From IMG/VR virus record IMGVR_UViG_3300050139_000115, positions 1 through 53,474 of that record: 53,474 bases of DNA; one strand, written 5' to 3'. This DNA is from a virus (taxonomy: Duplodnaviria; Caudoviricetes). This document shows, one piece after another, positions 6,067 to 38,240 of the stretch. Below the pieces are notes generated by a model. That model saw nothing but the letters and a program-made list of their open reading frames with translations. It ran no database searches and had not been told where the DNA came from. A program made the position numbers and the translations under genes. The stretch's first letter is position 1; the number at the start of each line of letters is the position of its first letter.

Positions 6067-7563
6067 TTAGCTGATTGGCATTATCTTCACCTTCCACAGT
6101 CTCACGTGATCGCGCTCGCCAGCGCTAACAATTTGTTTTCCATTGACAATGCGGCTTGAGTGGCGCCGCATCCAATAGCCAAGGCGGGCGCTGTCGATGG
6201 CGCCGGCGCGATCTTTTGCCACGTCCCGAAGCACCTGACCGAGCTTAGCTTCGGCTTCGGAAGTGACCGCACTGGTGACTTTCACAATGGCGTCGCGGCC
6301 AGTCATGGCCTCGTCGCCGAAGACCTCCAGCCATGCGTCGCACATACGCATGAGATCGGAGTGCTCCTGATCCTCATCCATCAACACCTGATGCGATAGG
6401 CGCGGGTCCGTGCAACCGACCCACACCAACGGAGCGCGAACCATCCTGGACCACGCCTCAAATCCGCCCCATGGGCCGACCCCTATATCCTCTGGTTTGA
6501 CCCCACTCACGACGAACGCACGCATCAGGGTCAGCCCGGCAATCACGAGCGCGGACCGATGCTCAAAGAAAAAATCCACCGCGTCGTAAGCAAAAGCCCG
6601 GTCTTCTGGCCGTTCCACCTTGGCGTCGAGGCGGCATAACATGGAGCGCGCGCGCAAGTCGCCGACGATCGATAAATGGTTGCCGGTCGCCAAAAACAAC
6701 ACCTGGGTCGGCGCGCGCACCGTGGCCGAGGAGCCGAGCAAGCGTTGTTTGAACTCCTCCGATGTGAGGATCGTGCACAACCATTCACCCTGCAACGGCC
6801 GCGTGACGTTATCGATCAGCACCACAGCATCGCCATCGAGCAACAGCGCGAGCGCGGTCTTTGCGGCTTCATCTTCTTTCGTCGGGTAGTTCATGGCCGG
6901 CGCCTTCGTACCCATGGCGAGGATGGCGATGCAATCAGCAAGTTTCGTCTTGCCGGAGCGCGCGGCGGGTGCCGTCAATCCACCCAAAGGGGCCGATGGC
7001 AGACTACGCCGCACCAGTGCGGTCAGGGCGAGGGATAGCGCGACGCCCAAGTCAACGCGCTCCTGAAATGGGAAAGTTTTGAACGCATCGAGCAGCACGT
7101 CGAGTGCCTCGCCAGCGTCATCGAGGGTCGGCTTATCTTTTACCTGCGGATACGCCGTCCCACAGGGGTCGTACCAGCATTGCGTTGCTGTGTCGTAGCC
7201 GGGCGTCTGCAGCAGCGATCCATCCGGTCTTAGAGTCGGCGTGCCGATCACCGCGCGCAGCGTCGGCAACTTCCAATGCCCCGAGCGCGCAAGGTACGTC
7301 TCGGCGACCATGCCGGGCGCATTGATACGGCGGTATTCCTCGGCGCGTGAATCCCAACGCTGCCAGCGTGCCGCGCGTGTGAGCGTCTCGACCAGGTACG
7401 GCTTGTCCACCATCAAGAGCCCCAGCGATCCCGCGGGCCGACGGAACTGACGCACAGTAGAGGCTTCGCGGATCACGATGCGCGCCAGCATTCCGCTGCG
7501 CTGGAACACGCGCACGTCGCCCTTGAGCAAGGCGGCCTCGGCCTCGTCGACGATGCCAGGCAA
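6067..7563 (-). CDS. Primase-associated P-loop helicase (C-terminal part of split replication gene)
   Basis: Walker A APAARSGKT, Walker B VVLIDNV, ATGN; frame stays open upstream to the A10 run at 7669-7678. Confidence 0.75.
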   Translation of the reverse strand: MPGIVDEAEAALLKGDVRVFQRSGMLARIVIREASTVRQFRRPAGSLGLLMVDKPYLVETLTRAARWQRWDSRAEEYRRINAPGMVAETYLARSGHWKLPTLRAVIGTPTLRPDGSLLQTPGYDTATQCWYDPCGTAYPQVKDKPTLDDAGEALDVLLDAFKTFPFQERVDLGVALSLALTALVRRSLPSAPLGGLTAPAARSGKTKLADCIAILAMGTKAPAMNYPTKEDEAAKTALALLLDGDAVVLIDNVTRPLQGEWLCTILTSEEFKQRLLGSSATVRAPTQVLFLATGNHLSIVGDLRARSMLCRLDAKVERPEDRAFAYDAVDFFFEHRSALVIAGLTLMRAFVVSGVKPEDIGVGPWGGFEAWSRMVRAPLVWVGCTDPRLSHQVLMDEDQEHSDLMRMCDAWLEVFGDEAMTGRDAIVKVTSAVTSEAEAKLGQVLRDVAKDRAGAIDSARLGYWMRRHSSRIVNGKQIVSAGERDHVRLWKVKIMPIS

Positions 7564-8321
7564 TTGGCCGTCGCGCCAAACGATCTCTGGCAGCGTGAAA
7601 TCGTCGGGGTCATCCGGTGGGCCGCCCTTCTGAGCTGGCGTTTCCGCTCCAGTACCCGCGGTCCCGTCTTTTTTTTTTCCGCATGGCCATTTGGCAAAGC
7701 GTTACCCATGATCAGCGCCTCGGCCTGCGCGGCCGTCCAGCCGGCTTCGAACGCCACGCCGAAATTCCAGCCCTCGGGCCAATCCGCGGTGACCGGCACA
7801 TCGACCTCAATTACCCCAGCAGCATAGCTGCGCAGAATCTTCGCGATCTTGGCGCGTGCTTTGTTTGTGCCAGCATCGGGCACAATCCACACCATCCGGC
7901 CGCGCAGCGGTGAAAAGTCCACGTCGTCGATCTTGCGCACACCGCCCGTCCAGGCGAGCGATGCGTAATGCGGCATCCATTCCCGCGCGGCATCAGCCGA
8001 GGCGCAATCGAACGTGATCATCACGGGGTACGGCGCCGCCAGCTCGGCGAGACGATGCAGGCCGTACAGCGGGCGCAAACTCGGGAACTGCACCCAACGC
8101 CACGCCCTCTCGTGTGCTGCGTTCGAACACCAGGTCAGCGTCTGCTGGATTTTCTCGCCGGTCGATCGGTAAAACGTGCAGACGTAACCGAGCGTGTTAT
8201 CTGCTTGGTCGCGGAAGTGGAAAATCTCTTTCGGCGTGCCGCGCACCTGGTGATCAAACCTTGGCGCGGGGGTGTCCTCTGGCACGGGAATGATCGGCGT
8301 CCATTGCTTGGGGCTTGTCAT
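7473..8321 (-). CDS. Toprim-like primase domain (N-terminal part of split replication gene)
   Basis: RPLYGL, W.GG..., VDFSPLRGR.VWIVPD, PEGW resemble phage primase Toprim regions. Confidence 0.65.
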   Translation of the reverse strand: MTSPKQWTPIIPVPEDTPAPRFDHQVRGTPKEIFHFRDQADNTLGYVCTFYRSTGEKIQQTLTWCSNAAHERAWRWVQFPSLRPLYGLHRLAELAAPYPVMITFDCASADAAREWMPHYASLAWTGGVRKIDDVDFSPLRGRMVWIVPDAGTNKARAKIAKILRSYAAGVIEVDVPVTADWPEGWNFGVAFEAGWTAAQAEALIMGNALPNGHAEKKKTGPRVLERKRQLRRAAHRMTPTISRCQRSFGATANCLASSTRPRPPCSRATCACSSAAECWRAS

Positions 8322-14892: not shown

Positions 14893-15117
14893 ATGATCCG
14901 CCTTTTCTTCTCTCTCACCATCCACCTGGTCCTGCAATGGAACGCCCGCGTGAACGCCGCAGCACAGCGCCACGCAGCCGCGCACGCTGAGGAAGATATG
15001 CTCGCTTACCGCGCCGGCATCCCGAGGGCCGACGAATCCGCCCAGCATTGGGAATCGCGCGTGCGCGAAATCAAGACTGAACTACGGGCACGGAAACTTG
15101 CGAGGTTATTCGGATGA
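14893..15117 (+). CDS. Hypothetical protein
   Basis: AGGAG RBS. Confidence 0.55.
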   Translation: MIRLFFSLTIHLVLQWNARVNAAAQRHAAAHAEEDMLAYRAGIPRADESAQHWESRVREIKTELRARKLARLFG

Positions 15118-15323
15118 ACACCACCGCCTCGCTCGATCTTCCGCTCGACATTCCCGTGAAGCCCCACGACGATCCGGAGCCGCGCGCGGTGTGGCAGACC
15201 ATCTTCGCGCCGACACGCCCGCACGTCACGTTCGAACAGGCGATGCGCGACCCAATCCTCGCCCACAGTATCACCCAGGTCTCGCTCAAGCGCGCACGGC
15301 GCCTCGCCAAGGCCGGCAAATGA
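15114..15323 (+). CDS. Hypothetical protein
   Basis: ATGA-coupled. Confidence 0.55.
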   Translation: MNTTASLDLPLDIPVKPHDDPEPRAVWQTIFAPTRPHVTFEQAMRDPILAHSITQVSLKRARRLAKAGK

Positions 15324-15727
15324 TCCTCATCGGGTTGGCTGGCCCGCCAAGCGCAGGCAGGAGCACCGTCGCCATGCGCCTGAGCCATGGCCACAGTTTC
15401 CAGCGACTGCTGTTTCGCGGCCCCAACCTGGAACGCGAGGAAACCTGGCGGCAGCAGTATGGCGAGCGCTTTGAATTTCACCGCGCGCGAAAAACGCCTG
15501 GCGTCGTCCTCAACGTGCAATCCGACAAAGAGGCGGCATTCATCCGCGACCAGGGCGGCCAGGTTTGGCACCTGCAGCGCTTAGGCTATCTGACGCGCGC
15601 GGGCGATACCTACAAAGGCATCCTTCCGCAAGCCGCCGATCGCGGTCTGCTGAACGACGGCCCGATCGCGGCGCTCTACAACCGCGTCGACAGACTGCTC
15701 GACGACTTGGCCGACGCGCGCGGCTAA
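15320..15727 (+). CDS. Degenerate dNMP-kinase-like P-loop protein
   Basis: MILIGLAGPPSAGRST...EAAFIR..GG.VWHL.R. Confidence 0.55.
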   Translation: MILIGLAGPPSAGRSTVAMRLSHGHSFQRLLFRGPNLEREETWRQQYGERFEFHRARKTPGVVLNVQSDKEAAFIRDQGGQVWHLQRLGYLTRAGDTYKGILPQAADRGLLNDGPIAALYNRVDRLLDDLADARG

Positions 15728-15745
15728 TCACTTTCAGGAGAACCC

Positions 15746-17521
15746 ATGAACGCACCCGCCACCGCCACCACGCCAGACAGCGCCTATCAATTCATCATGC
15801 TCGACGACATCGAGCCATCGAACACGCACATCCAACAGTTGCGCAGGGCTCGGTTCGACACCGCAGCCATGGCCGAGCTGGTCGCGACCGTCGAGGCGCA
15901 CGGCGTGCTGCAGCCGATTCTGGTGCGGCCGAAATACACCGTGCGCGTGCACCATGCCGGCGAGGGCCTCCACTGGTACGCCGAGATACTGGGATTTTCC
16001 GGCAATTGGAATACGCAGGGCACCGGCCATAAGACGCAGGCCGAGGCCGAGGCCGAAGGGGCACAGCTCTCCGCGCAACACGAGATCGTAGCTGGCGAAC
16101 GCCGTTGGCTCGCCGCGCGCGCGGCGAAGCTCGCGCAGATCCCCGCCGTGGTGCGCGATCTCACCGACCTCCAGGTGCTCGAATTCCAGTTGATTGAAAA
16201 TTTACAGCAGGAAGGCTTGCACCCGCTAGAGGAGGCCGAAGGCTTTGCCGACCTGATGAAGTTGCAAGAGGTAACCGCCGAAACCATCGCCGAAACTATC
16301 GGCCGCAGCAAGAGCCACGTGCACGCCCGTTTGAAGCTGCTCGAACTCATCCCCGCAGCCCGTGAAGCGTTCAACAGCGGCTTGATCGATTTATCCAAAG
16401 CGCAGCGCATCGCGCGTATTCCGGTGCCAAAGCTGCAAGCAAAGGCGCTCAAGCTCGCGGCGACTCCCGACTACCGCGGCGACGCCATTTCGTTTAGAGA
16501 TTTCACGCACGGTCTCGAAAACAATAAATTTGTGATCGCGCTGAAACTCGCCACATTCAGCTTACGCGACTCTACCCTACCCGGCGGCGATTGCATTGGG
16601 TGCCCCAAACGCACGGGCAATCTGGGTGATTTGTTCACCGACATCAAAGACCCCGACGTATGCACCGACCCCGGTTGTTTCGATAAGAAGACCACAGCCC
16701 ATCAAAAGCACCTGCGCGCCCAGGCCGATGCAACTGGCCGCACCATCATCAGCGGCGACGCGGCCAAGGCGATCATGGGCCATCAAGATCAACTGCGCGG
16801 TTACATCGACCTCGATGCCATATCAAACGAAGAATTCCCCGAGGCGGAACCGGAAACGCCAGAGGACGGCGCAAAGACGCCAGAGTGGTTTGCCTGGGAA
16901 AAGCGCTTTGACGCCTTCACCCCGCGCACCTATCGCCAGATCCTCGGTGACATCGAAGCCGCCGTGCTGCTCGACACCGGCAAAACGCTACGTGAGATCC
17001 TCGCCATCGCCGATGCGCGCAAACTCCTCAAGCCGCACGGCATCACTTTGCCAGACTGGATTGACCGCAAACCAGAACCATCCGACCCAGCCGAACGAAA
17101 AGAAGAGGAAGAAAAGCAGCGCGAGCGCCAAGCGACCGAGGAAGAATTCCGCCGCGCATTGCTCGCGCAGATTCACGCCAAGTGGAAGGGACCGCTAAAA
17201 CGCGAGGACCTCATTGCGCTTGCCCGCTGGCTGCTGGAGACCACCGACACCACCGCGCTTGAACAAACGTGCTACGGCGGCAAGGAAATCAATCCCGAGA
17301 AAATGACCGAGGCCGAACTGATCCGCCTATTGGCGGAATTCACCGTGACGCAGACGATCGAGTACCTGAGCAACAATCCCGCCCCACTCCTCAATCTGGC
17401 CAAGCGCTGCAAGATTGATCCGGCCAAGGTGAAGAAGGACCTTGCTTCAGCGGCGAAGGCGAAAGCAAATCCGGCGCCGGCGAAGGCGCGGAGCACCAAG
17501 AAAAAGGCGGTGAAGAAATGA
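15746..17521 (+). CDS. ParB/RepB/Spo0J-family protein
   Basis: GVLQPILVRP...EIVAGERRW.AA...IENLQ, HPLEEA, HTH, C..CP...C.DP.CF. Confidence 0.85.
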   Translation: MNAPATATTPDSAYQFIMLDDIEPSNTHIQQLRRARFDTAAMAELVATVEAHGVLQPILVRPKYTVRVHHAGEGLHWYAEILGFSGNWNTQGTGHKTQAEAEAEGAQLSAQHEIVAGERRWLAARAAKLAQIPAVVRDLTDLQVLEFQLIENLQQEGLHPLEEAEGFADLMKLQEVTAETIAETIGRSKSHVHARLKLLELIPAAREAFNSGLIDLSKAQRIARIPVPKLQAKALKLAATPDYRGDAISFRDFTHGLENNKFVIALKLATFSLRDSTLPGGDCIGCPKRTGNLGDLFTDIKDPDVCTDPGCFDKKTTAHQKHLRAQADATGRTIISGDAAKAIMGHQDQLRGYIDLDAISNEEFPEAEPETPEDGAKTPEWFAWEKRFDAFTPRTYRQILGDIEAAVLLDTGKTLREILAIADARKLLKPHGITLPDWIDRKPEPSDPAERKEEEEKQRERQATEEEFRRALLAQIHAKWKGPLKREDLIALARWLLETTDTTALEQTCYGGKEINPEKMTEAELIRLLAEFTVTQTIEYLSNNPAPLLNLAKRCKIDPAKVKKDLASAAKAKANPAPAKARSTKKKAVKK

Positions 17522-17847
17522 GTGCCGCACCGGAGAGTTTCGATCTGATCGCCCACCTGCGCCGGCAGTGTGAATTTTCCCTTCACACTTTCGGACCCGG
17601 CGAGCGCACGGACGGATTGATCGATCACATCATCAAAGAGCTTGACGAGATCGAGTCGGACCCGACCGACCTCTCCGAGTGGATCGATGTCGTGATTCTC
17701 GCCCTGGATGGCGCGTGGCGAATCGGAGCGACGCCGGAGCAAATCGTCGCCGCTCTGGTAGCAAAGCAGACCAAGAACGAGGCGCGCGAATGGCCTGACT
17801 GGCGCACCGCTGCACCAGGGAAAGCCATCGAGCACGTTGAAGACTGA
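17518..17847 (+). CDS. DUF550-like dATP/dGTP pyrophosphohydrolase domain protein
   Basis: TFGPG.R...HI.KEL.EI...EW.DV.IL..DG...K..KN..R.WPDW. Confidence 0.75.
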   Translation: MSAAPESFDLIAHLRRQCEFSLHTFGPGERTDGLIDHIIKELDEIESDPTDLSEWIDVVILALDGAWRIGATPEQIVAALVAKQTKNEAREWPDWRTAAPGKAIEHVED

Positions 17848-17866
17848 CCCACAACCAGGAGCCCAC

Positions 17867-18481
17867 ATGAACGCACCAGAATCAAAGACCGAAGTTCCCA
17901 CAATCATCGGCACACCCTACGGCGGCGGTTTCTTCTACGGCCGCATCATCGACGGCGATCATCTGTTCGCACTGATCGTCGCGCCTAAGGACGGCGGCGA
18001 GCATGACGACACGCCGTGGAATAAGTCAAGGAAGGCTGTTGCCGGCGCCGGCAGCTACTTCGACGGCATGGCCAACACACGCGCGATGGCTGAGGCAGGC
18101 AGCGGACTCGCCCAGTGGGCGCTGGGCCTGAAACTCAACGGCGAGAGCGACTGGTATCTGCCCAGCCGTGACGAGCTGGAGATCCTGTACCGCAACCTCA
18201 AGCCTACCACCCACGAGAACTACGAGTACCGCAACGGCGACAATCCGAGCAGCGTGCCGGCAGGGTATCCATACACCGCCAAGCTGCCAGCGCAAACCGC
18301 TGCCGAGCACTTCCGTACTGGCGGCCCCGAGGCATTCGAGGACGCCTGGTATTGGACCTCAACGCAGTGCGCCCCGGACGACGACTATGCCTGGGCGCAG
18401 GATTTCCTCAACGGCTTCCAGAGCAACTACCGCAAGGACGACGACTTCAGGGCTCGGGCGGTCCGCAGATTGCCCATTTAG
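17867..18481 (+). CDS. DGR1 target A, DUF1566/CLec-like protein
   Basis: IGTPYGGGFFYG, DWYLPSRDEL, WYWTST, RARAVRR; 3' end is VR1a. Confidence 0.88.
   Translation: MNAPESKTEVPTIIGTPYGGGFFYGRIIDGDHLFALIVAPKDGGEHDDTPWNKSRKAVAGAGSYFDGMANTRAMAEAGSGLAQWALGLKLNGESDWYLPSRDELEILYRNLKPTTHENYEYRNGDNPSSVPAGYPYTAKLPAQTAAEHFRTGGPEAFEDAWYWTSTQCAPDDDYAWAQDFLNGFQSNYRKDDDFRARAVRRLPI
18363..18470 (+). repeat. Variable repeat VR1a
   Basis: Aligns ungapped to TR1; 14 mismatches, all at TR A. Confidence 0.95.
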
Positions 18482-18509
18482 TCCATTCAACAATTTCAGG
18501 GGTGAACCG

Positions 18510-19010
18510 ATGAAAAACGCGAAAGCACAATGGATCAAAGAAAACCTCAAGGAAGGCGAGGAATACAGCGGCCTAATTCTTGGCAAGGGCGGCGAGTCGG
18601 ATTACCACCTGATCCTGCGGCCCGGCGAGGCAGAATCCGTCACTCACGAACAAGCCAAGGAATGGGCCAAGAAAGCCGGCGGTGAACTTCCGACTCGCCG
18701 CGACCAGGCGCTGCTCTATGCCAACCTGAAGGAGCAGTTCCAGCCGCGCTGGTACTGGTCTGGCGCGCAGTACGCCCCGGACGACGGCTATGCCTGGGCG
18801 CAGGATTTCGGCTACGGCACCCAGGGCTTCTACCCCAAGGACGACTACTACAGGGCTCGGGCGGTCCGCAGATTGACCCTTCAACAATTTAACCTTTGCT
18901 TTTCAGCATGGCCATTCACACACAATTGCCGATCTACAAGGTTGCGTACAACCTCGCCGATCTTGCCGTCGATCTCATCAAGAACATGCCGCGTGAAGTC
19001 AAAGCGGTGA
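18510..19010 (+). CDS. DGR1 target B, short DUF1566-like protein (reads through into the avd region)
   Basis: GGELPTRRDQALLYANL, WYWSG, RARAVRR; contains VR1b; AGGGG RBS. Confidence 0.82.
   Translation: MKNAKAQWIKENLKEGEEYSGLILGKGGESDYHLILRPGEAESVTHEQAKEWAKKAGGELPTRRDQALLYANLKEQFQPRWYWSGAQYAPDDGYAWAQDFGYGTQGFYPKDDYYRARAVRRLTLQQFNLCFSAWPFTHNCRSTRLRTTSPILPSISSRTCRVKSKR
18766..18873 (+). repeat. Variable repeat VR1b
   Basis: Aligns ungapped to TR1; 16 mismatches, all at TR A. Confidence 0.95.
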
Positions 19011-19264
19011 TCGGCGGCGAGCTTCGGGACGAGTGTCTGCGGCTGTTGGTCCTGATCTTCAGGGCCAACGTCGCCACGGACAAACGCGCGCACCTGACTC
19101 AGTTGATCGAACGCCAGCAAGTGGTCGAGTTGCTTCTCCGCCTGTCGCGGGATAAGCGCTTCATTTCGACCGGGCAGTATGCGCGGGCGGTTCAGTTGAC
19201 CGAGAGCATCGGCAAGCAAGCCAATGGATGGCGCAAAGCTTCCGCATCGTCGCCTGCCACATGA
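18908..19264 (+). CDS. avd: DGR1 accessory variability determinant (four-helix bundle)
   Basis: LPIYK.AY.L...MPR..K..IG...LLRL..D...IGKQANGW; between target and TR. Confidence 0.85.
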   Translation: MAIHTQLPIYKVAYNLADLAVDLIKNMPREVKAVIGGELRDECLRLLVLIFRANVATDKRAHLTQLIERQQVVELLLRLSRDKRFISTGQYARAVQLTESIGKQANGWRKASASSPAT

Positions 19265-19331
19265 AGGTCAAGGCTTTCATGTCCGTGCGATATTCAATCT
19301 GGTCGTGCCGCTTCCTCACGAGGGAACCGAT

Positions 19332-20666
19332 ATGCGCGTAGTGGACACCCACGGCAGCAGCCGGGACGGGTCCGGCGCAGTTTCCCCGCTGATCGGCGCG
19401 AGCCTTCGCCGGGGTGACGTAGATAGCACGAACGACCGCAGTACGCCCCGAACAACGACTATGCCTGGGCGCAGAATTTCAACAACGGCAACCAGAACAA
19501 CTACCACAAGGACAACAACTACAGGGCTCGGGCGGTCCGCAAATGAATACGATGCTGGCCATGCTGATTTTTCTTTTGAGGAATTGGTAGTCGCGTACCT
19601 GGACTGCCGCAAGAACAAGCGCAACACCCACACCGCCGTCGCGTTCGAGCAGGACTTAGAGCGCAACCTGTCCCGGCTTCACAGCGACCTGGTTGACGAG
19701 TCCTACACGCCCGGCCGCTCGATCTGCTTCATTGTCACCAGGCCAAAGGCCCGCGAAGTCTGGGCGGCCGACTTCCGCGATCGCATCGTCCACCATCTGC
19801 TATACAACCGGATCGCGCCACGGTTCTATGCCAGCTTCATCGCTGACACCTGCGCGTGCATCCCAGGCCGCGGCACGCTCTTTGCCGCCCAACGACTCGA
19901 AGCGAAGATCCGGAGCATCACGCAAAACTGGACGCGGCCGGCGTGGTATCTGAAATGTGACATCGCCAATTTCTTCGTCAGTATCGATAAGCGCGTGGTG
20001 CGCGAGCAGCTCGCCGCGCGCGTCACCGAATCGTGGTGGATGGCGCTGGCGGAGACGGTGCTGTTTCACGATCCACGGCCGGGCGCGTCAATACAGAGCA
20101 CACCTGCATTGATGGCACGGGTGCCGCCGCATAAAAGCTTGCTGAACCAGGTCGAGAATCTTGGCCTCCCCATCGGCAATCTATCGTCGCAGTTTTTCGC
20201 CAACGTCTATCTTGATGCCTTGGACCAGCATTGCAAGCACCGCGTGCGTGCGCTGCACTACATCCGCTACGTGGACGACTTCATCCTGCTCCACGAATCA
20301 CCGCAATGGCTGAATACGGCGCACGCCGACATCGAGGCTTTCCTGCCGCGCGAACTTGGCGTCAGGCTGAATCCATCAAAAACCATCTTGCAGCCGGTCG
20401 ATCGCGGCGTGGACTTCGTTGGCCATGTGATCAAGCCCCACAGCCGCACTGTTCGGCGGCGGACCGTCCGCGTAGCCATCGAGCGCATCAGCCGAATGGA
20501 AGGCGAGGACTTATATCGATCGGCGAACAGCTATTTCGGCTTGTTGCGCCAGTCACCGCAGAGCCACACCGACCGAGCGCGCCTGGGCAACGTCCTGCGT
20601 AGCCGCGGGCGTTCGATCAACAAGCAGTTCACGCAAACTTATCGGACGGCTCGAAATGACGATTAA
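19332..20666 (+). CDS. DGR1 reverse transcriptase (start uncertain: ATG 19332, ATG 19461 or TTG 19584)
   Basis: RDRIVHH, YLKCDIANFF.SI, GLPIGNLSSQFFAN, YIRYVDDF, GVDFVG. Confidence 0.92.
   Translation: MRVVDTHGSSRDGSGAVSPLIGASLRRGDVDSTNDRSTPRTTTMPGRRISTTATRTTTTRTTTTGLGRSANEYDAGHADFSFEELVVAYLDCRKNKRNTHTAVAFEQDLERNLSRLHSDLVDESYTPGRSICFIVTRPKAREVWAADFRDRIVHHLLYNRIAPRFYASFIADTCACIPGRGTLFAAQRLEAKIRSITQNWTRPAWYLKCDIANFFVSIDKRVVREQLAARVTESWWMALAETVLFHDPRPGASIQSTPALMARVPPHKSLLNQVENLGLPIGNLSSQFFANVYLDALDQHCKHRVRALHYIRYVDDFILLHESPQWLNTAHADIEAFLPRELGVRLNPSKTILQPVDRGVDFVGHVIKPHSRTVRRRTVRVAIERISRMEGEDLYRSANSYFGLLRQSPQSHTDRARLGNVLRSRGRSINKQFTQTYRTARNDD
19437..19544 (+). repeat. Template repeat TR1
   Basis: AAC-rich copy of both VRs, ending GGGCGGTCCGCAAAT (IMH*). 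Confidence 0.95.
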
Positions 20667-21168
20667 GCCTGTCCGTTTTTCGCTTGACGACGCGCAGACC
20701 GCGGCCGGTGGGTTTTTCAATTGCGGGCCAGCAGCATTGTGCGCCGTCGCTGATCTACTGCCGGATGAGGCGGTGTCCAAGCTGCGCGGTTTCGAGCGAA
20801 AGCACTACACCAATCCCTCGATGATGCAGCAGGCCCTTGGCGATCTCGGCATCAAATTTCAGCGCGTCTATGAATGCCTCGGGCTCGGCATTGCGCGCAG
20901 TCCGCTTTATCCAACTTTCGGCCTTGTCCGGGTGCAGTGGGGCGGCCCGTGGACGAAACCTGGCGTTCCGGTGGCCGCCAGATACCGGCATACACATTGG
21001 ATCGCCGCCAGCGATGAAATGCGCTTCGACGTTAACGCGATGTGCGTTGGCGGCTGGTTGCCGCGCGCCGAGTGGGAAACGCAGCTTGTGCCGTGGCTGC
21101 TGAAGGAATGTGAGCCGAAGGAAAACGGCGAATGGTGGCCAACTCATTGTTGGGAAATTTCGAGGTGA
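20656..21168 (+). CDS. Hypothetical protein, possible papain-like (C39-like) fold
   Basis: NCGPAAL and HTHW motifs. Confidence 0.55.
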   Translation: MTIKPVRFSLDDAQTAAGGFFNCGPAALCAVADLLPDEAVSKLRGFERKHYTNPSMMQQALGDLGIKFQRVYECLGLGIARSPLYPTFGLVRVQWGGPWTKPGVPVAARYRHTHWIAASDEMRFDVNAMCVGGWLPRAEWETQLVPWLLKECEPKENGEWWPTHCWEISR

Positions 21169-21175
21169 CCAATCC

Positions 21176-21499
21176 ATGACCGCCCCCGTCCGCGTCCAGC
21201 TCTCGCGCAAGAAAGGCTTCCGGCTGCCGCCGAACACCGCCAACGTGGCACGGCCGTCGCAGTGGGGCAACCCGATCAAGGTTGGTGGCACGTTGCGCGT
21301 AGAAGCCGATGGCGACATGGTTGAAGCCGCCATCACGCCGGCGATCGCCGTCGAACTCTTCCGCGAATACATCGCCGGCGCGCTGCGCAAACACCCGGCA
21401 CTGCTCGAACCGCTGCGCGGCAAGCGCCTAGCCTGCTGGTGCGCGCTCGATGCGCCATGCCACGCCGACGTATTGCTCCAGTTGGCCAATAAACCATGA
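21176..21499 (+). CDS. DUF4326-like protein
   Basis: RVQLSR.KG.RLP.N...V.RPS.WGNP...LRGK.LACWC...PCHADVL. Confidence 0.85.
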   Translation: MTAPVRVQLSRKKGFRLPPNTANVARPSQWGNPIKVGGTLRVEADGDMVEAAITPAIAVELFREYIAGALRKHPALLEPLRGKRLACWCALDAPCHADVLLQLANKP

Positions 21500-21762
21500 A
21501 CCGGGCTGGCCCCATCGAAAACGTCGCCTACAAATCAGAGGCCGAGATCCGCGCCTATTTGCGCGGCCTCGATGATGGTGGTTTGATCGCCCAAGAAATG
21601 ACGCAGAAGGGCGCCATGCACGCCATCCGCTTCATCCTCCAGACCCCAGGCGATGCGCGCGAACTCGCCAAGCAGATGCGCGACAACCTGCGCTGGCACG
21701 CGATGATCATCAGCGAAGAATGTGCGCGCCGCGGCCTGCCCGTTGTCGCGGAGAACGGCTAA
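21496..21762 (+). CDS. Hypothetical protein
   Basis: ATGA-coupled. Confidence 0.55.
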   Translation: MNRAGPIENVAYKSEAEIRAYLRGLDDGGLIAQEMTQKGAMHAIRFILQTPGDARELAKQMRDNLRWHAMIISEECARRGLPVVAENG

Positions 21763-21765
21763 GCC

Positions 21766-21975
21766 ATGTTTCTCACCGCCGCCGAACTGCGCGAACTGAC
21801 CGGCCGCGCCCGCCGCAAGGATCAACTCGTCTGGCTCAAAGCCAAGGGCTACAAGCACGAAGTGAACGCGCTCGGCAGGATCATCGTCGCCCGTGCCCAT
21901 GTAGATCACCGACTTGGTTCAGGCCAGCCGCCGGCGCCGGAGCCGGATTTCTCGGTGTTCCACAAAGCGGCGTAA
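21766..21975 (+). CDS. Excisionase-like protein (DUF4224-like)
   Basis: MFLT..EL.ELTG....Q..WL...G; immediately upstream of the integrase. Confidence 0.8.
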   Translation: MFLTAAELRELTGRARRKDQLVWLKAKGYKHEVNALGRIIVARAHVDHRLGSGQPPAPEPDFSVFHKAA

Positions 21976-21986
21976 GATAGCCGCCC

Positions 21987-22991
21987 ATGTCCCGCCGCCG
22001 GCTTACCGACCTTCACCTGCCCGTCAGGGTGTATTTCAAGAACGGCAGTTATCGCTATGTTGATCCCGCTAACAAATGGCACACCCTGGGCCGCGCATGG
22101 GACAGGGAGGCGCGCGCAGAGTTCGACCGGCTATCCAGGGGCACCGCACCACCGCAGACCGTATCAGCCCTCCTTGACGCCTTTCTGAAGCATCGCGAAG
22201 ACGAAGTGCGCGCCGGGACGAAGGCGATGCGCACCCTGGACGACAACGAGCAGGAAGCCAAGACGTTGCGCATGGTATTCGGGCAGATGCCGGTATCGAC
22301 GGTCAAGCGCCAGCACGTTGCCCGATATCTCCGGGAGCGCAACGACAAGGACGGCAAGCCGGCGCCAGTGCGCGCCAACCGCGAAGCTGCCCTCCTTTCC
22401 TCTGCCTTCGCCTGGGCGATGGGCCTGCGCGATTGGGACATCAACGAGAATCCATGCTACGGATGCCGGCGGAACACGGAGCGGCCGCGGCGCCGTTACA
22501 TTGAGACATCCGAGCTGGCAATATGGAAGCGCACCGCACCGGCAAGGCTCCGAGCGTTCGTGCTGTTGAAGCGCCTCACCGGATCGCGCCAAGGCGAGCT
22601 ACTCGCGCTCACGCGGGCGAGCATCACAGATCGAGGGCTTACGATCGGGATCTCCAAGACAGGACGAACCAAGATCGTGCGCTGGTCATGGGCGTTGCGT
22701 GTAACGATCGATGCGATCCTGAAGATCCACGGCAAAGTGCCGAAGATCGCGTTATTCCCGGCCAGGAACGGCGGAGCGTTGACCGGGCGAGGATTCAAAA
22801 GCGCATGGGCTCGGGCGATGGAGCCTTACCTTACGGCCGGCGGGGCGCGGTTCCGGGAGAACGACATCCGGGCGAAGACCGCGAGCGACATGAGCACGGC
22901 CGATGCGCAGCAACTGCTCGACCACGCGAGCCCATCGATCACGCGCCGCACCTACCAGCGCGCGCCGGTGAAGGTCAGGCCGTTGCGCTGA
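21987..22991 (+). CDS. int: Tyrosine recombinase integrase
   Basis: LTGSRQGELL.L, SKTG, NDIRAK, LLDH, TRRTY; adjacent to attP. Confidence 0.9.
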   Translation: MSRRRLTDLHLPVRVYFKNGSYRYVDPANKWHTLGRAWDREARAEFDRLSRGTAPPQTVSALLDAFLKHREDEVRAGTKAMRTLDDNEQEAKTLRMVFGQMPVSTVKRQHVARYLRERNDKDGKPAPVRANREAALLSSAFAWAMGLRDWDINENPCYGCRRNTERPRRRYIETSELAIWKRTAPARLRAFVLLKRLTGSRQGELLALTRASITDRGLTIGISKTGRTKIVRWSWALRVTIDAILKIHGKVPKIALFPARNGGALTGRGFKSAWARAMEPYLTAGGARFRENDIRAKTASDMSTADAQQLLDHASPSITRRTYQRAPVKVRPLR

Positions 22992-23053
22992 TTGTCTAAT
23001 ATCCAAAATAGATTTTAGACAATCGCGCTTTCGACTCTTCTAACCCCTTGATT
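22990..23053. promoter_or_regulatory. attP accessory sites: inverted repeat and IHF site
   Basis: GATTGTCTAA (22990-99)/TTAGACAATC (23015-24); 23041-53 reverse complement AATCAAGGGGTTA fits the IHF consensus WATCAANNNNTTR. Confidence 0.6.
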
Positions 23054-23098
23054 TGGGGTGGCTGATGGGGCTCGAACCCACGACAACCGGAATCACAA
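23054..23098 (-). other. attP core = 3' half of tRNA-His(GTG)
   Basis: Reverse complement TTGTGATTCCGGTTGTCGTGGGTTCGAGCCCCATCAGCCACCCCA runs from the anticodon loop to CCA; 5' half absent. Confidence 0.9.
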
Positions 23099-23287
23099 AC
23101 CAAGCGACTTTTGCTGATTTTTAACTAGAAAACAGGAAAGTGTCAAAATCGAGCAATCGGCCGCAATCCGGGCGATTCTAGCCCCTTTCCCGCTGCCGTA
23201 CCCTACCACCCCACCCTAAGCGAACGCACGCGCCCTACCCCTGATCCAAAGGCGCCCGGCTAGAACGTAGCGCCACCCCGTAAACGC

Positions 23288-23320
23288 AAAAAATCCCAGA
23301 CCAGCCGAAGCTGATCTGGG
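23288..23320 (-). terminator. Rho-independent terminator ending the late operon
   Basis: CCCAGATCAGC-TTCG-GCTGGTCTGGG followed by ATTTTTT. Confidence 0.8.
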
Positions 23321-23352
23321 TAGTTCCACAGCAACGCCTTCAGGGTGTCCAG

Positions 23353-23781
23353 CTACGCGCTCGTGACCTCGCCGCCCGTAATAAAGCCATGCCAGGCGCA
23401 TCCACCAATCAGCAGCACCGACCGATTACCACCACCTCCTACCGCGTCGCCGTTCAGCGTCAGGTCGTCGAGACTGGTCCCCGATATTGACCAGCGGCCC
23501 GGACCTGGACGAGCATCCTCGGGCGTGCCGCGGCTTCGAGACCAGCAGACCACCAGGTGAGTGCCGACCGGGCCGCCGTTTGCCGCAAAGCACTTCGGGC
23601 ACAGGAACTGGATGCCCTGCGCTTCGGCAATTGAATCGACGGGGTGCATCACGACCTGTTCGCGCAATTCGGTGTGTGACCCACTCGCCGAGCCGACCGC
23701 CGGATCGTTGACGATTTCCGTTGGCCAGTTTGGTGTCACCACGCGCCGCAGGAAGTGCGGATCGAGTTCGATCAGCTTCAT
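23353..23781 (-). CDS. DUF6527-like protein (copy 1)
   Basis: CPKC...H...RW..SG....LTL...S.....CAWHGFITGG. Confidence 0.65.
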   Translation of the reverse strand: MKLIELDPHFLRRVVTPNWPTEIVNDPAVGSASGSHTELREQVVMHPVDSIAEAQGIQFLCPKCFAANGGPVGTHLVVCWSRSRGTPEDARPGPGRWSISGTSLDDLTLNGDAVGGGGNRSVLLIGGCAWHGFITGGEVTSA

Positions 23782-26210: not shown

Positions 26211-27047
26211 CTACCGAACAAAAGTCTGCCCGCTCGGTGTCTGCCCGCTCGGTGTCTGCCCGCTCGGTGTCTGCCCGCTCGGTGTCTGCCCGCTCGGTGT
26301 CTGCCCGCTCGGTGTCTGCAAGTAGAGCACCTGGGGAGCTTGAGCCACTGGTGCCGTCGATTTGGTTTCCGCGAAGATCAGCGCGACCACGGCCACGGCG
26401 ACGCCGGCAACCGCCAGGATTGCGGCCCAGGTCGAGCCGATGCCTTCGCTCTTGCCTTGGTTCGCCGACTGCGCTTTGACCATGTTGCGCATTTCGGTCA
26501 TCAGCTCGGCCATCGCCGGGTCGGTGTAGGCGCTTCGCCCCTGTCCGGTGTACGAGGATTTTTCCAAGGTGGCGATGCGTTCGGTGAACTGCGCAGTCAG
26601 CGCGTTTTGCGCCTTCGCCATCGTGTCGGCGGTGGTTGCCACCAGGGCGCGCAGCGCGTCCGCCGATGCGGCCACCTGATTCGCCAGCACCGAGGCTTGC
26701 TGCCCGGCGCGCTCACTTGCCACCGCCACCGCCGCTACGTCCACGGCGCGGATGGCGTCGATGCGCTTCGCCTCCGCGAGCGCCAGTTTTTCATGGAAGT
26801 CAGCGACCAGCTTTTGCTGTTCGTCAATGCGCCTGCTTTCCGCCCCCCTCAAATCGTCGAGCCTCTTGCTCTCGGCCACAGAACGAAGCAAGGCGGTATC
26901 TTTCAAGTTGCCCATCACCGCGTCGTAATACTTATTGTCCGACTTGCGCAGGTCACGCTGCGCTTTGACCGCAGCCTTGACCAGCGCCATGACGTTCTCG
27001 GTCGGGTCAACGGCGCCTTTGCTATTTCTTTGTTGATCGACGGTCAT
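26211..27047 (-). CDS. Coiled-coil protein with C-terminal TM segment and (QTPSG)6 tail
   Basis: Ala-rich helices, WAAILAVAGVAVAVVALIF; GGAG RBS. Confidence 0.7.
   Translation of the reverse strand: MTVDQQRNSKGAVDPTENVMALVKAAVKAQRDLRKSDNKYYDAVMGNLKDTALLRSVAESKRLDDLRGAESRRIDEQQKLVADFHEKLALAEAKRIDAIRAVDVAAVAVASERAGQQASVLANQVAASADALRALVATTADTMAKAQNALTAQFTERIATLEKSSYTGQGRSAYTDPAMAELMTEMRNMVKAQSANQGKSEGIGSTWAAILAVAGVAVAVVALIFAETKSTAPVAQAPQVLYLQTPSGQTPSGQTPSGQTPSGQTPSGQTPSGQTFVR
26224..26319. repeat. 15-bp perfect tandem repeat x6.4
   Basis: GTCTGCCCGCTCGGT units. Confidence 0.95.
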
Positions 27048-27595: not shown

Positions 27596-28053
27596 CACAG
27601 ACCCAGCTTCGCTTTCTCTGCGCGCCCCCACGTGCGCACGGCCTCGACGTGCGCGCCGAAAGCCACCAAAGCATCACGCTCCCCCGCTTCGAACGTGTAC
27701 GCCCCAAGCGCTACGCCCACACCAATCCGAGCAAAATACTGCTCATCTTCGAGGCTATAGCGCGCTCGAATCTGCTCCTGCATCCGGGACGAGATCAGTG
27801 CGACATGCGGGCTCGCCGCCTTGATCGCGTCGCGCAGCGCGTCGGTGAGCGTCACCGGCGCCACGTTTGCCGCGATCTCTTGCGGCTGCTCGGCAGGCAG
27901 TGCGGCCCCGTCTGGCAGGGCGACATAGGTAATGCCCTCGACGGTGGCCAGTTCGGTGCCCAGACGCTGGCGCGTCGTTGGGTCTTCAGGCAGCCGCAGC
28001 TCGCGGGTGATCTGCTCGTCGATATGCTTGCGGTAGCCAATGATGGAGGGCAT
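27595..28053 (-). CDS. Hypothetical protein downstream of the DGR2 RT
   Basis: AAGGAG RBS; MPSIIGYRK...KAKLGL. Confidence 0.7.
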   Translation of the reverse strand: MPSIIGYRKHIDEQITRELRLPEDPTTRQRLGTELATVEGITYVALPDGAALPAEQPQEIAANVAPVTLTDALRDAIKAASPHVALISSRMQEQIRARYSLEDEQYFARIGVGVALGAYTFEAGERDALVAFGAHVEAVRTWGRAEKAKLGL

Positions 28054-29002
28054 GGTTGTGCTCCTTGAGATAACGCAGCATGTGCTGCAATGAATGGGTG
28101 CGGCGCGCATGGCCGAGCACTGAAACCGTGCTCTCCATTTCGCCGCGCTTGACGGACTGGCGGAAGGTATAAAGGCTATGCCGGCGCACGAAGCGCTTGC
28201 TGATCCAGGTGCGGTAGCCGACGAAGTTCATGCCGCGCTTCACCCGCGCCAGGGTAGACTTCGACAGCTCGAGATGAAGGCCGGCGATGAACTCCACGAT
28301 CCGCGCCTTGCAGATCAGTAGTGCCTCGCGCGTCAAACCGAACAGCACGAAGTCGTCCACATAGCGGCAGTAGCGCTTGATGTGCAGAACGCGCTTGATG
28401 AAGTGATCGAGCGGGTTGAGGTAGATCAGTGCGTAGAGTTGCGAAAGCAGGTTGCCGATTGGAATGCCAACCGGCTCGCCGTGGTCCGAGAACAGCATCA
28501 TCAGATCCACGAATCGCCGGTCCTTGATCTTTCGTTCGATCAGGCCGCGAAGAATCTTCCGATCGATACGATAGAAGAACTTTCGGATGTCGAGCTTCAA
28601 CGTGTAGCTGCCAGGCGGGCAGGCTTGCAGAGCCTCCTGCGCGTAGTCAGCGGCCTTGTGCGTGCCATAACCGACGCGGCATGCAAACGATTGATCGATG
28701 AAGCCGCGGTCGAAGATCGGCCCGGCCACGGCATAGATGGCATGCTGCACCACCAGGTCGCGGAAGGCGGGAGCATAGATGCGCCGCGGCTTCGGTTCGT
28801 AGACCATGAAACTATAGTACGGGCGCGGCTTGTAGCTGCCGTCTGCCAGCTCTCGGTGCAGTGCGTCCATATTGGCGGCCAGGCGCTTCTCGAAGTTGAA
28901 ACACGCACGCTTGCCGTGCTTATGTCTCGCCGCGGCGTGGAAGGCCAACCGCAGCGCCTCCGGTGTGAAGGCGGATTCGAACAGATAACCGAAGCGCTTC
29001 AT
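27986..29002 (-). CDS. DGR2 reverse transcriptase
   Basis: FRDLVVQH, LKLDIRKFF, GIPIGNLLSQ, YCRYVDDF, NFVGY. Confidence 0.93.
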   Translation of the reverse strand: MKRFGYLFESAFTPEALRLAFHAAARHKHGKRACFNFEKRLAANMDALHRELADGSYKPRPYYSFMVYEPKPRRIYAPAFRDLVVQHAIYAVAGPIFDRGFIDQSFACRVGYGTHKAADYAQEALQACPPGSYTLKLDIRKFFYRIDRKILRGLIERKIKDRRFVDLMMLFSDHGEPVGIPIGNLLSQLYALIYLNPLDHFIKRVLHIKRYCRYVDDFVLFGLTREALLICKARIVEFIAGLHLELSKSTLARVKRGMNFVGYRTWISKRFVRRHSLYTFRQSVKRGEMESTVSVLGHARRTHSLQHMLRYLKEHNHALHHWLPQAYRRADHPRAAAA

Positions 29003-29154
29003 TACCGGAACTCCGCTTGACGTTCGAGACGGCATGCCGCCCTACCAGAAAAGCGCCGGCACACCGATTTCGCCGTGACTATCATGGCGCTAATCACGCG
29101 CCGGAAAGCGTCTCCCTTGATTCCACTTCGACCCTGCAGCCCGTGAGGTGAAAT

Positions 29155-29274
29155 CGAGTCCGCGCGAAACCCCACGTTGTTGTTGGAGTTGCTACGCACA
29201 TTGTTGAGATTGAAATACCAGACCCCGGCGTTCGACGAGTTGTTCCAGTTGCCGCCAGAGATCGGGCACATGTC
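29155..29274 (-). repeat. Template repeat TR2
   Basis: AAC-rich (GGNWNNSSNAGVW...NNNVGFRA) copy of VR2. Confidence 0.95.
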
Positions 29275-29683
29275 AAGACGCTTCCCGTTTTTCGAGCTGA
29301 TGTTCGGCGACGATCCAGCCGCCGAGCATCCTGCCTAATTCGTCCACCAGCCGCGAGAGCGCGAGATACCGATGCTCGCCCAACGCGGCCGGAGATTTGT
29401 CCACCTTCTTCCCATCCTTGAACTCGAAATATCCGAGCGTGTACGCGAGGCGCACCAGCATGCGCAGTTGCTCGTGCCGGATGTCCAGATTCGTCAGGCT
29501 GGTTTTCTTGTGATAGCGCTTCTGCGCTTCGACGATGAAACCATAGACCTCGTAGGCCGCGCGCCGGATTTCGAGCGCGAGACCGTACTTTTCATGCTTC
29601 GGGAAGTGATTCAGATGCACGTTCATCAGCTTCGCGAATTCCATGAATTTCTGATCCAGTTTGGCTTCGTCGTGTAGCCCCAT
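29273..29683 (-). CDS. avd: DGR2 accessory variability determinant
   Basis: FPKHEKYGL..EIR, KKTSL..LD...EQLR, ELGRMLGGW. Confidence 0.9.
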   Translation of the reverse strand: MGLHDEAKLDQKFMEFAKLMNVHLNHFPKHEKYGLALEIRRAAYEVYGFIVEAQKRYHKKTSLTNLDIRHEQLRMLVRLAYTLGYFEFKDGKKVDKSPAALGEHRYLALSRLVDELGRMLGGWIVAEHQLEKREAS

Positions 29684-29699
29684 CGCTATCGCTCGGGGC
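29677..29699 (-). other. Hairpin 3' of VR2 (candidate retrohoming cis element)
   Basis: GCCCC-GA-GC-GATA-GC-GA-T-GGGGC directly after the target stop. Confidence 0.55.
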
Positions 29700-29700
29700 C

Positions 29701-31050
29701 TCAGAGATACAAGGCCGCGCGAAACCCCACGCTGTAGGCGGCGTTGCCACGCACATCGTAGAGACTGAAATCCCAGACCCCGGCGCTCGACGAGGCGTTC
29801 CAGTAGCCGCCAGAGAGCGGGCACATGTCTGCCACACGATAATCGTAGAAGGCATCATTGCCGAAAGGGTTGGTGCCACCAACCCCGCCAACCAGGGGGC
29901 CACCAACCCCGGTCCATTGCCAGGCGAGTCCGCTGGTGGCCTCGCTGAACACCTGCGCGGCATTGCCGTAAAGCTTGAGACTGGCACTGGCAAGCGCCGC
30001 ACCGTAGGTCGCGCCGAGATCGTCGTAGTTCGCCGCCAGTTGCCCGGCCGTGCCCCAGAGATCGAGCGCGCCACCAACGCCGGCCGTCATGTCCTTCATG
30101 CGCGCCGAAGTCTTGAGCACGTAGTAATGCGTCGCGGCCGTCTCAGAAACCAGGCCAAGATCGATGTTGTAGATGAGGCCATTCAAATCGGCGACGCCGC
30201 TGTTCTGGCCGTTGTGTGTTGTCCGACTGAACAGGTTCGCCGATCCCGTCTTTCCGCAGTTGGTAGCCGTGCCATCGTTCAGGTAGAGGATGGCGGCGTC
30301 CTGCGCATCGCCCAGGGCGTTGTTGTTGCAGCCCTTGGGGAAGTTATTCACGGCGTGATACCAGGCGCAGTAGGTGGTGGTGCTCGACGCCTGGCCGTGG
30401 GCGTAGGCCAAGAGCGCCAGCGCCGCGCGGATGAAGCGAGACGAGCAGAAGAAGTTCGCGCCGCGCGTCTTGGCCGCCGCGATCGCGCCGTAGTAGGCAT
30501 CGATGGGCGCTCCGGTGAGGGAGGCAAAGTTCGTGTTGGCGATGCCTCCACGCAGGGCACTTGCCAGCGGGATGCCGTTTTTCAGGCTGGACGCAATGCC
30601 GCCGTTGCGACTCGGCACGTATTTGTCCACGAAGAAACCGGCCTGAATCGCGCCACCATCGTAGAACGCCCGGTGCAGCGCATAGCCCGCGGCGTTGGCC
30701 GTGGCCACGTCGACGTAAGCGGAAAATGGCTGGATCGCCACCTGGTTCAACGTGACGCCATTCGCGCCGGTCCCCCATTTGTAATAGAAGGCGGGAATCC
30801 AGACCATGACCGAGCCATCGGAATACTGGTAATTCCCGTAGGCGTCGGCGAGTGGATTCTGGTAGTCGGACAAACCGCCCATGCCGGCTGGCAGCGGGCC
30901 GGGACAGACGCCGACACCGAATCCAGCCTGGCCGGCAATGCCGATGTTGTTGATGCCACCCAGGGCGCCCGAGCCGATGACGATGCCGGTGGGGAACTGC
31001 ACCGGCTGGCCGTCCTTGCCGGTAATTTTGCGAAGATTGAGGTTGCTCAC
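29701..31050 (-). CDS. DGR2 target, Mtd-like CLec-fold tail/receptor-binding protein
   Basis: FFVDKY, HNG..SGVADLNG, C-terminal GG.W....AGVW...VGFRAA; GTG start coupled to the upstream tail gene. Confidence 0.85.
   Translation of the reverse strand: MSNLNLRKITGKDGQPVQFPTGIVIGSGALGGINNIGIAGQAGFGVGVCPGPLPAGMGGLSDYQNPLADAYGNYQYSDGSVMVWIPAFYYKWGTGANGVTLNQVAIQPFSAYVDVATANAAGYALHRAFYDGGAIQAGFFVDKYVPSRNGGIASSLKNGIPLASALRGGIANTNFASLTGAPIDAYYGAIAAAKTRGANFFCSSRFIRAALALLAYAHGQASSTTTYCAWYHAVNNFPKGCNNNALGDAQDAAILYLNDGTATNCGKTGSANLFSRTTHNGQNSGVADLNGLIYNIDLGLVSETAATHYYVLKTSARMKDMTAGVGGALDLWGTAGQLAANYDDLGATYGAALASASLKLYGNAAQVFSEATSGLAWQWTGVGGPLVGGVGGTNPFGNDAFYDYRVADMCPLSGGYWNASSSAGVWDFSLYDVRGNAAYSVGFRAALYL
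29710..29829 (-). repeat. Variable repeat VR2
   Basis: Ungapped 120-bp alignment to TR2; 14 mismatches at TR A, 2 T>G, 1 C>T at the IMH end. Confidence 0.95.
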
Positions 31051-31484
31051 AGAACGCTCCAATTTGAGTTGTCGGCTAGGGTCACTTCTACGCCGTCGCC
31101 AATGGTTAAAGGGCCGGCCGAATAGGCGTTATAGCCGGATGGTATGGTTACGTCGGCAAGTAAAGTCGTAGGGTTCATCCGCACCGCCGGATTGAGATCC
31201 GGATTCGCGGCAAGGGCCGCAGTCCATGCAGCCTGAGCAGCGACGCTGGCAGCGGCAGCGGCGATGGCATTGGCGGTCGCATTGGCAAGTCCGGCATTCA
31301 ATGCGGACTGCGCTAGGACGCCGGCAGATGTGGCCAATGACTGCTTGGCGTTCACATCGACTTGCAAGGCGTTCGCTTCGGTGACGAACGTCGGTAGTGC
31401 AGCCAAGAATGTATCTGCACGCGCCGCAAACGTGGTTGGGTCGATCGTGCTGGGCGGAGTCGGCAGCGGAGTGATACCAGGCAT
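31047..31484 (-). CDS. Tail fibre-associated protein
   Basis: ITPLPTPP...DP.TF..RAD.FL; TIPSGYNA.SAGP.TI..G..VT; tail position. Confidence 0.65.
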   Translation of the reverse strand: MPGITPLPTPPSTIDPTTFAARADTFLAALPTFVTEANALQVDVNAKQSLATSAGVLAQSALNAGLANATANAIAAAAASVAAQAAWTAALAANPDLNPAVRMNPTTLLADVTIPSGYNAYSAGPLTIGDGVEVTLADNSNWSVL

Positions 31485-38202: not shown

Positions 38203-38212
38203 GTGTTTTCCC

Positions 38213-38240
38213 AATAAAAAGGCCCGCCGAAGCGGGCCTT
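38213..38240 (-). terminator. Rho-independent terminator after moron
   Basis: AAGGCCCGC-TTCG-GCGGGCCTT then TTTATT. Confidence 0.75.

Follow-up and report, generated by a model that had tools for sequence, protein, structure and literature searches.

An early-arm diversity-generating retroelement with two small lectin-fold targets in a temperate phage genome

The window analyzed here is the whole of the IMG/VR virus record IMGVR_UViG_3300050139_000115, a stretch of 53,474 nucleotides. On its plus strand lies a candidate diversity-generating retroelement (DGR), termed DGR1, in which genes for two small proteins, target A and target B, are followed in order by a gene for a bAvd protein, the structured RNA RT-15, a template repeat (TR1) and a reverse transcriptase (RT) gene (Table 1). 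Three copies of a repeat of about 108 bases occur in the region, TR1 itself and two variable repeats (VRs), VR1a in target A and VR1b in target B. Adenine-biased differences between TR and VR, an adjoining RT, an Avd, a VR that lies in a C-type-lectin fold and a difference in the sequence likely to serve initiation of mutagenic homing (IMH) are all found here. As to the expected location of a VR at the 3′ end of its gene, that of target A is close to the stop codon, and the target B frame runs on for 137 nt past its VR. Taken together, these features make it almost certain that DGR1 is a DGR to which both targets belong.

In ungapped comparison TR1 adenines are the site of all 30 VR mismatches (14 of 14 for VR1a and 16 of 16 for VR1b), for which the odds by chance are (1/3)^30, about 5e-15 or once per some 2e14 trials. 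Divergence of paralogues in place of a DGR was entertained as an origin of these differences and is rejected by their adenine specificity. A preliminary description of this DNA, made from the sequence alone, had given the same counts, with every mismatch at a TR adenine, and had described one TR for two tandem small targets; both statements are correct, and the five shared codon changes that it listed, four of them Asn>Asp and the other AAA>AGA, match at the codon level. With respect to the target reading frame, 35 of the 36 TR1 adenines are at codon position 1 or 2, and, with ten AAY codons in TR1, there is theoretical scope for about 2e19 peptide variants.

The changes in the two VRs coincide more than might be expected at the level of sites (both VRs are altered at 11 sites, where some 6 would be expected; p ~0.001) and only modestly above chance at the level of the base introduced. 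The same new base is present in both VRs at 6 sites, offsets 14, 17, 38, 60, 77 and 105, with p ~0.04, or ~0.08 when the IMH position is left out, and the sixth identical base falls in a codon that differs between the VRs (AGC versus GGC). As A>G accounts for 19 of the 30 changes, base bias alone raises the odds of coincident changes. A family-wide need for Asp as the explanation of the four shared Asn>Asp changes was also considered and is rejected, as few columns vary more than these do across 63 homologues; selection acting at particular sites, or a similarity of ligands, could be the cause. The shared AAA>AGA is a different matter. VR1a, VR1b and TR1 have in common the GC-rich stretch CAGGGCTCGGGCGGTCCGCA, 3′ of which both VRs have GATTG where TR1 has AATGA, and by analogy with the phage BPP-1 this reads as the IMH/IMH* distinction at VR and TR ends, with the corresponding role predicted. 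Since AAA>AGA sits 3′ of the GC-rich stretch, the same analogy suggests that it is part of the IMH difference rather than the outcome of a mutagenesis event.

Target A is a C-type-lectin domain standing alone. Its AlphaFold model (pLDDT 92.9) has the C-type-lectin fold, with the C-terminal domain of Legionella Lcl (8q4e) as best PDB match and a Bacteroides fimbrial protein next, and the protein has 1955 homologues of similar length. A GGAG-containing stretch is present a short way 5′ of its ATG. Target B shares 37% identity with A in the C-terminal part and scores 24.8 bits against Pfam Lcl_C, which is under the 34.9-bit threshold and leaves it outside the family by score; many of its homologues carry a precomputed PF07603 match. 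The model for B has a pLDDT of 78.7, low in the VR loops, and its best PDB match is again 8q4e (E 1e-2), so that, to judge from the model, B probably works like an Lcl_C domain despite the sub-threshold score. There are 1157 homologues of B, those among the 120 listed being mostly of 122-128 amino acids. No hydrophobic leader, lipobox-like motif or membrane-like stretch was found in either target (the highest Kyte-Doolittle average in any 19-residue span is 1.06 in A and 0.35 in B). Neither target has a match in NCBIfam or among the 5027 models of PADLOC, and both match phrog_4245, a PHROG without assigned function. In the same PADLOC comparison Avd, a 170-residue open reading frame (ORF) downstream of the RT gene and a DUF4326 protein match 0 families, and the RT matches generic RT models only.

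The end of target B is atypical. Its four closest relatives (79-84% identical) have 124-125 amino acids and end 2-3 residues past the VR, with ...RAVRRLTLQ, ...LTIQ or ...LPI. In target B codon 126 is CAA where the relatives stop, and 41 extra residues (18885-19010 region) are added in a frame different from that of avd, the first 103 nt of which are overlapped.

The scaffold is kept, and the VR codons differ, in homologues that share 70-87% identity with A or 66-84% with B. In alignments of 63 and 66 homologous sequences, columns with an entropy >2.5 bits are clustered in the VR for B; for A they fill the VR and occur upstream too. Comparison of relatives is thus evidence that both target types have been diversified in nature at the population level, and is not proof of activity in this genome; such variation makes it rather probable that DGR1 has been active recently within its lineage. 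Logan contigs, in which rare variants are dropped, are available from samples X1, which may be the source, X2 and X3, the last from another study. Those of X1 (records 1, 2, 4 and 5) cover 17500-20700 with 0 differences and so support the assembly, including the absence of the B stop codon, without being independent evidence. X2 contigs cover parts of the stretch only. Two contigs from X3 (records 19 and 20), each beginning at 18742, differ over VR1b (for example 18828 T>A, 5.47 of 13.2 depth), which could reflect two VR variants or two related phages and is not counted as evidence.

The avd product is 39-65% identical to the Avd proteins of related cassettes. Its score against the NCBIfam model DivGenRetAVD, 53.6 bits, is under that model's cut-off of 80, and no obvious ribosome-binding site precedes the gene. 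In all 10 of the related loci scanned (L001-L004, L007-L010, L015 and L087), RT-15 occupies the interval between avd and TR, which makes 11 of 11 with DGR1. According to the accessible parts of Weinberg et al. 2017, where the motifs RT-1 to RT-19 were defined, RT-10 was assigned to the BPP-1 DGR and DGR membership of the other RT motifs was merely speculated on. Its place in 11 of 11 cassettes ties RT-15, an orphan motif, to a DGR lineage.

Most RTs of related cassettes share 57-75% identity with that of DGR1, and two share 46%. The DGR1 RT carries YVDD and IGNLSSQ, which we take to be DGR-typical motifs. Its open frame extends over 480 codons, from 19224 to 20666, with the conserved part beginning at about 19569. 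The first in-frame ATG past RT-15, at 19461, is within TR1, and there is no in-frame ATG, GTG or TTG between the end of TR1 and the conserved N-terminus. RT synthesis probably starts at this ATG inside TR1, or at a codon farther upstream, the true start being uncertain.

Table 1. Positions of the DGR1 and DGR2 features in the window, with family scores and the cut-offs that apply to them
Feature	Positions	Strand	Remarks
Target A	17867..18481	+	204 amino acids; stand-alone Lcl_C/DUF1566 C-type-lectin domain; Pfam PF07603 47.8 bits (cut-off 34.9)
VR1a	18363..18470	+	14 mismatches to TR1, ungapped; ends 11 nt short of the A stop codon
Target B	18510..19010	+	166 amino acids as encoded; residues 1-124 short C-type-lectin domain; codons 126-166 atypical extension overlapping avd
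VR1b	18766..18873	+	16 mismatches to TR1, ungapped
avd	18908..19264	+	118 amino acids; Pfam bAvd PF22296 52.7 bits (cut-off 40)
RT-15 RNA	19248..19438	+	Rfam RF03018 167 bits (gathering score 82); model 1-192, full length; directly 5′ of TR1
TR1	19437..19544	+	36 A in 108 bases
RT (probable start)	19461..20666	+	Pfam RVT_1 E 1e-16
DGR2	27986-31062	-	Second complete classical DGR; own RT, Avd and TR
RT2	27986-29035	-	29% identical to RT1
TR2	29157-29274	-	16 mismatches to VR2, 14 at TR adenines and 2 at T
avd2	inside ORF 29273-29824	-	DGR2
DGR2 target	29701-31062	-	453 amino acids; tail-fibre-like; contains VR2 (29712-29829)

A cassette of the DGR1 type is also present in Burkholderia phages Magia and vB_PL1, Shewanella phage vB_Sb_QDWS and Pseudomonas phage LPPA56, in all four of which it is in the early arm, upstream of the integrase gene and in the same orientation as it, and in five IMG/VR contigs. 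Of the nine phage and IMG/VR loci with avd and RT, seven have two VRs and two have three, with the mismatches almost exclusively at TR adenines. In a survey in which each prokaryote species was represented by one genome, a relative of target A is encoded in 397 of the 546 candidate stretches. Among the best 80, which were kept, 60 loci have avd and RT in the expected order. Two adenine-biased VRs are present in 44 of these, three in 12 and one in 4, and 1732 of their 1805 VR mismatches are at TR adenines. With two or three VRs in 56 of the 60, several targets per TR are the rule in the lineage and are on record in the literature also, so that the arrangement is not an unusual one. The titles of the records in the genome survey are mostly of Burkholderiales, Rhodocyclales and Pseudomonas. 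DGR1, which is intact, belongs to a lineage common among temperate phages whose hosts are Beta- and Gammaproteobacteria.

Relatives with fewer parts also occur. In one locus (L005) the RT is reduced to a fragment of 44 residues, and in another (L046, 7338-8588) an A-type fusion adjoins the integrase gene with no avd or RT within 8 kb. Pseudomonas phage Medea1 (L091) has at 6313-8132 a tandem of two DUF1566 genes and a 164-residue ORF, flanked by recombination genes on one side and two DNA methyltransferase genes on the other, with avd and RT unannotated within 7 kb; this tandem may represent the cassette in a decayed state or without its DGR. The accessible parts of the Medea1 and P. syringae phage papers make no mention of DUF1566, DGRs or virion proteomics. 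Three closer relatives of A (51-54% identity; P0252, P0258 and P0246) are fused in a single frame to an enzyme, which is an Rv2179c-like exonuclease, a Dam methylase or a DHH phosphoesterase.

An identical direct repeat of 127 nt at 1-127 and 53348-53474 suggests that the window is a phage genome of about 53.3 kb, complete and assembled as a circle; its GC content is 60%, and the phage is temperate. The plus strand arm encodes a sliding clamp homologue, a radical SAM enzyme, a helix-turn-helix protein, ParB and a MazG-like pyrophosphohydrolase, then DGR1, the 170-residue ORF, the DUF4326 protein and the integrase. A short block of minus strand genes at about 3.4-10.8 kb includes a DNA methylase gene, and from 51612 down to 23353 the minus strand encodes the large terminase, portal, protease, major head protein, adaptor, tail proteins and endolysin, the capsid protein sharing 47-54% identity with its counterparts in phages phi1026b and D3. 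The gap between the MazG-like gene and target A is 19 nt. A scan of 15000-23500, with a tool that is weak for a phage of 60% GC, found no promoter-like or terminator-like site on the plus strand, and on the minus strand one promoter-like site and 13 terminator-like sites, not above shuffled sequences (mean 11). The short gap, together with the lack of plus strand sites in the scan, points to co-transcription of A with the early operon. The 170-residue ORF (20656-21168, plus strand), which overlaps the RT end by 11 nt, has no Pfam, PHROGs, PADLOC or NCBIfam match, and the genes downstream of RT vary between related cassettes.

The second DGR, DGR2, is on the strand of the virion genes, and the low identity of RT2 to RT1 makes the two DGRs of this phage unrelated. 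Elsewhere in the tail region its largest ORF, of 1840 amino acids (32692-38214, minus strand), has no PHROG match at E 1e-5 and contains at 33635-34447 seven copies of an 84-nt (28-residue) unit that are 66-71% alike. Between tail and lysis genes a protein of 278 amino acids (26211-27047, minus strand), for which there is no PHROG match, has a C-terminal hydrophobic stretch followed by six QTPSG copies.

In what is the most likely mechanism for DGR1, an RNA spanning RT-15 and TR1 would be copied to cDNA by the RT with Avd, with template adenines miscopied. The cDNA would then replace VR1a or VR1b, guided by the GC-rich 3′ end common to the three copies and by the 5-nt GATTG exclusive to the VRs. 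Up to 22 codons would be rewritten in this way on the ligand-binding face of two stand-alone C-type-lectin proteins, one a long form (A, 204 amino acids) and the other a short form (B, about 125 amino acids in relatives).

We infer, with a probability of about 0.5, that A and B are soluble non-virion binders, products of the early operon that act in the infected or induced cell or after their release by lysis. This is suggested by the lack of an anchoring domain or leader in either protein and by their encoding in the early arm, and further by the position of the Medea1 DUF1566 tandem among recombination and methylase genes and the fusion of three A relatives to cytoplasmic nucleic-acid enzymes. 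The presence of the cassette alike in the myophage Magia and in Cruim01 and Aurca01, which an accessible table of PMC11256456 lists as siphoviruses, is consistent with it and not proof, and the same applies to the separate DGR2 aimed at a tail-fibre-like gene. The preliminary description had proposed hypervariable cytoplasmic binders, without signal peptides and encoded among early genes far from the virion module. The integrase-side plus strand arm, with virion and lysis genes on the minus strand, agrees with that location, and hydropathy, on a scale that is crude and is no signal-peptide predictor, bears out the absence of signal-like sequence in both targets; gene position and protein build thus fit, while the non-structural and cytoplasmic nature is unproven. 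Its further suggestions of an anti-defence or host-takeover role, or of action as a pair, have no direct support. An elaboration in which A and B form an intracellular binder repertoire, with each progeny phage carrying a differing pair and a fraction of them able to neutralize a defence protein or other cytoplasmic factor of the next host, is a speculative and rather unlikely one.

Several observations weigh against one part or another of the interpretation of DGR1 as a recently active DGR with soluble non-virion targets. Each of the enzyme fusions retains an internal Met at the usual A start, and the fusions may be accidental read-through from lost stop codons. The abnormal 41-residue tail may impair target B. 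The X1 contigs (records 1, 2 and 4) have a single sequence over both VRs, to be read with the dropping of rare variants from contigs in mind. No hairpin or cruciform stands out downstream of VR1a or VR1b (z -0.04 and -0.44), and BPP-1, unlike DGR1, has a hairpin downstream of its VR; nothing stands out in the structure 3′ of TR1 either (z +1.12). Phage virion proteins need no signal peptide, and in proteins with Phage_tail_fib, collagen, Ig or Mtd_N domains a full-length A-type domain, at about 40% identity, forms the C-terminal tip. The structural matches in BFVD include a tail-fibre protein and a Peptidase_S74 protein.

The last of these, the domain at the ends of tail-fibre-like proteins and the BFVD matches, are what would be expected if A and B were virion-associated receptor-binding tips, docked on a tail fibre or baseplate and serving to broaden the host range in the manner of Mtd in BPP-1. 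To our knowledge every phage DGR target with a tested function is a receptor-binding protein, which counts in favor of such tips. So does the statement, in the accessible parts of Roux et al. 2021 (PMC8144416), that viral DGR targets are mostly tail proteins. A and B, however, consist of the lectin domain alone with nothing to anchor it, their genes are in the early arm on the strand opposite to all virion genes, the cassette is shared by phages of different tail types, myophage and siphoviruses, and a 453-residue tail-fibre-like protein is already diversified by DGR2, all of which makes a virion location doubtful. Gene position could also be accounted for if the prophage made A and B in the lysogen, as variable proteins that sense or block incoming phages and other invaders to the benefit of the host. 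The integrase end of a prophage, beside which the cassette is found, is a usual place for accessory genes, a terminator is annotated in Magia just upstream of the first target, suggesting a separate transcription unit there, and in its accessible parts Belalov et al. 2023 argues that some DGRs serve immunity. Yet A begins 19 nt past an early gene with no plus strand promoter-like site in the scan, and, with 0 of 5027 PADLOC models matched and no effector domain adjoining, defence of the lysogen has to be considered improbable.

That DGR1 is here a decaying relic, the VR differences being historical and target B already damaged, would fit with the lost B stop and the 41-residue run into avd, with the lack of an RT start codon between TR and the conserved N-terminus, with the one sequence over both VRs in the source-like sample and with the existence of degenerate relatives such as the L005 RT fragment and the L046 target without avd or RT. 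Against this, the RT retains its catalytic motifs in a frame that stays open for 480 codons, avd, RT-15 and TR are intact, and TR adenines are confined but for one to codon positions 1 and 2; moreover, the Magia RT too starts upstream of TR, so that starting within TR or ahead of it seems to be usual in this lineage, and a relic is very unlikely.

DGR1 is new in no kind, as two-target cassettes, DUF1566-only targets and the Magia architecture are already on record. The question it raises is one about the lineage, namely why temperate phages should aim hypermutation at small soluble lectins encoded by early genes and not at tail fibres. If the early-arm targets do act inside the cell, this would be a new use of DGRs by phages, and if they constitute an intracellular binder repertoire, the prophage lineage would be a natural source of cytoplasmic antibody-like scaffolds. 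A literature search made mainly on listings of papers found no tested function for such small early-region targets. In the accessible parts of Wu et al. 2018, two targets are given for 13% of DGRs (50/372), the DUF1566-type category, about half of it short DUF1566-only proteins, makes up 14% of DGRs, and several DGRs are present in about 10% of complete DGR-containing genomes.

The closest parallel among described phages is Magia (NC_070954), where two small lectin-fold targets (gp47 and gp46) are followed by Avd (gp45), RT-15, TR and RT (gp44). The accessible part of its announcement (PMC7883833) describes a myophage with a potential DGR whose targets are in short reading frames, and a GenBank note has gp47 as a lectin-fold potential target; the cassette type is found in Cruim01 and Aurca01 as well. 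As with DGR1, the Magia cassette is in the early arm, there upstream of the excisionase and integrase genes, its VR mismatches, 8 and 11, are all at TR adenines, and the annotated RT begins upstream of its TR as the DGR1 RT frame does. Identity to DGR1 is 64% for RT and 57% for Avd. The differences are in the targets. Both of those in Magia are short (120 and 154 amino acids) and B-like, and it is without the 204-residue A-type target of DGR1; its second target gene stops 14 nt before avd, whereas target B runs into avd. LPPA56 (OR188718) does have an A-type target, 50% identical over 204 amino acids, followed as in DGR1 by a second target, avd, RT-15, TR and RT, with an integrase gene downstream. 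Its RT is 60% identical to that of DGR1, its second target, at 220 amino acids, is longer than B, and every gene of the record is annotated as a hypothetical protein.

Category 'd'/CLec2 of Wu et al. 2018, again in its accessible parts, with Legionella pneumophila LdtA as a member, shares with A and B the overlap of the VR with a DUF1566-type C-type-lectin domain. LdtA is presented in that paper as a lipoprotein of the cell surface whose variable end is exposed, in contrast to A and B, which are without lipobox or hydrophobic leader and belong to a phage early region. The BPP-1 system (mtd-avd-TR-brt) is built of corresponding parts and has the same adenine-specific logic as DGR1, but it has one target, a tail-fibre protein encoded in the late region, where DGR1 has two encoded in the early arm, and it differs further from DGR1 in that the structured RNA of DGR1, RT-15, is 5′ of TR and the DGR1 RT frame abuts or covers TR. 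It is the layout of DGR2, with a tail-fibre-like target, avd2, TR2 and RT2, that matches BPP-1, so that in this phage a classical tail-fibre DGR can be compared, within a single genome, with an early-arm DGR that has a separate RT, Avd and TR.

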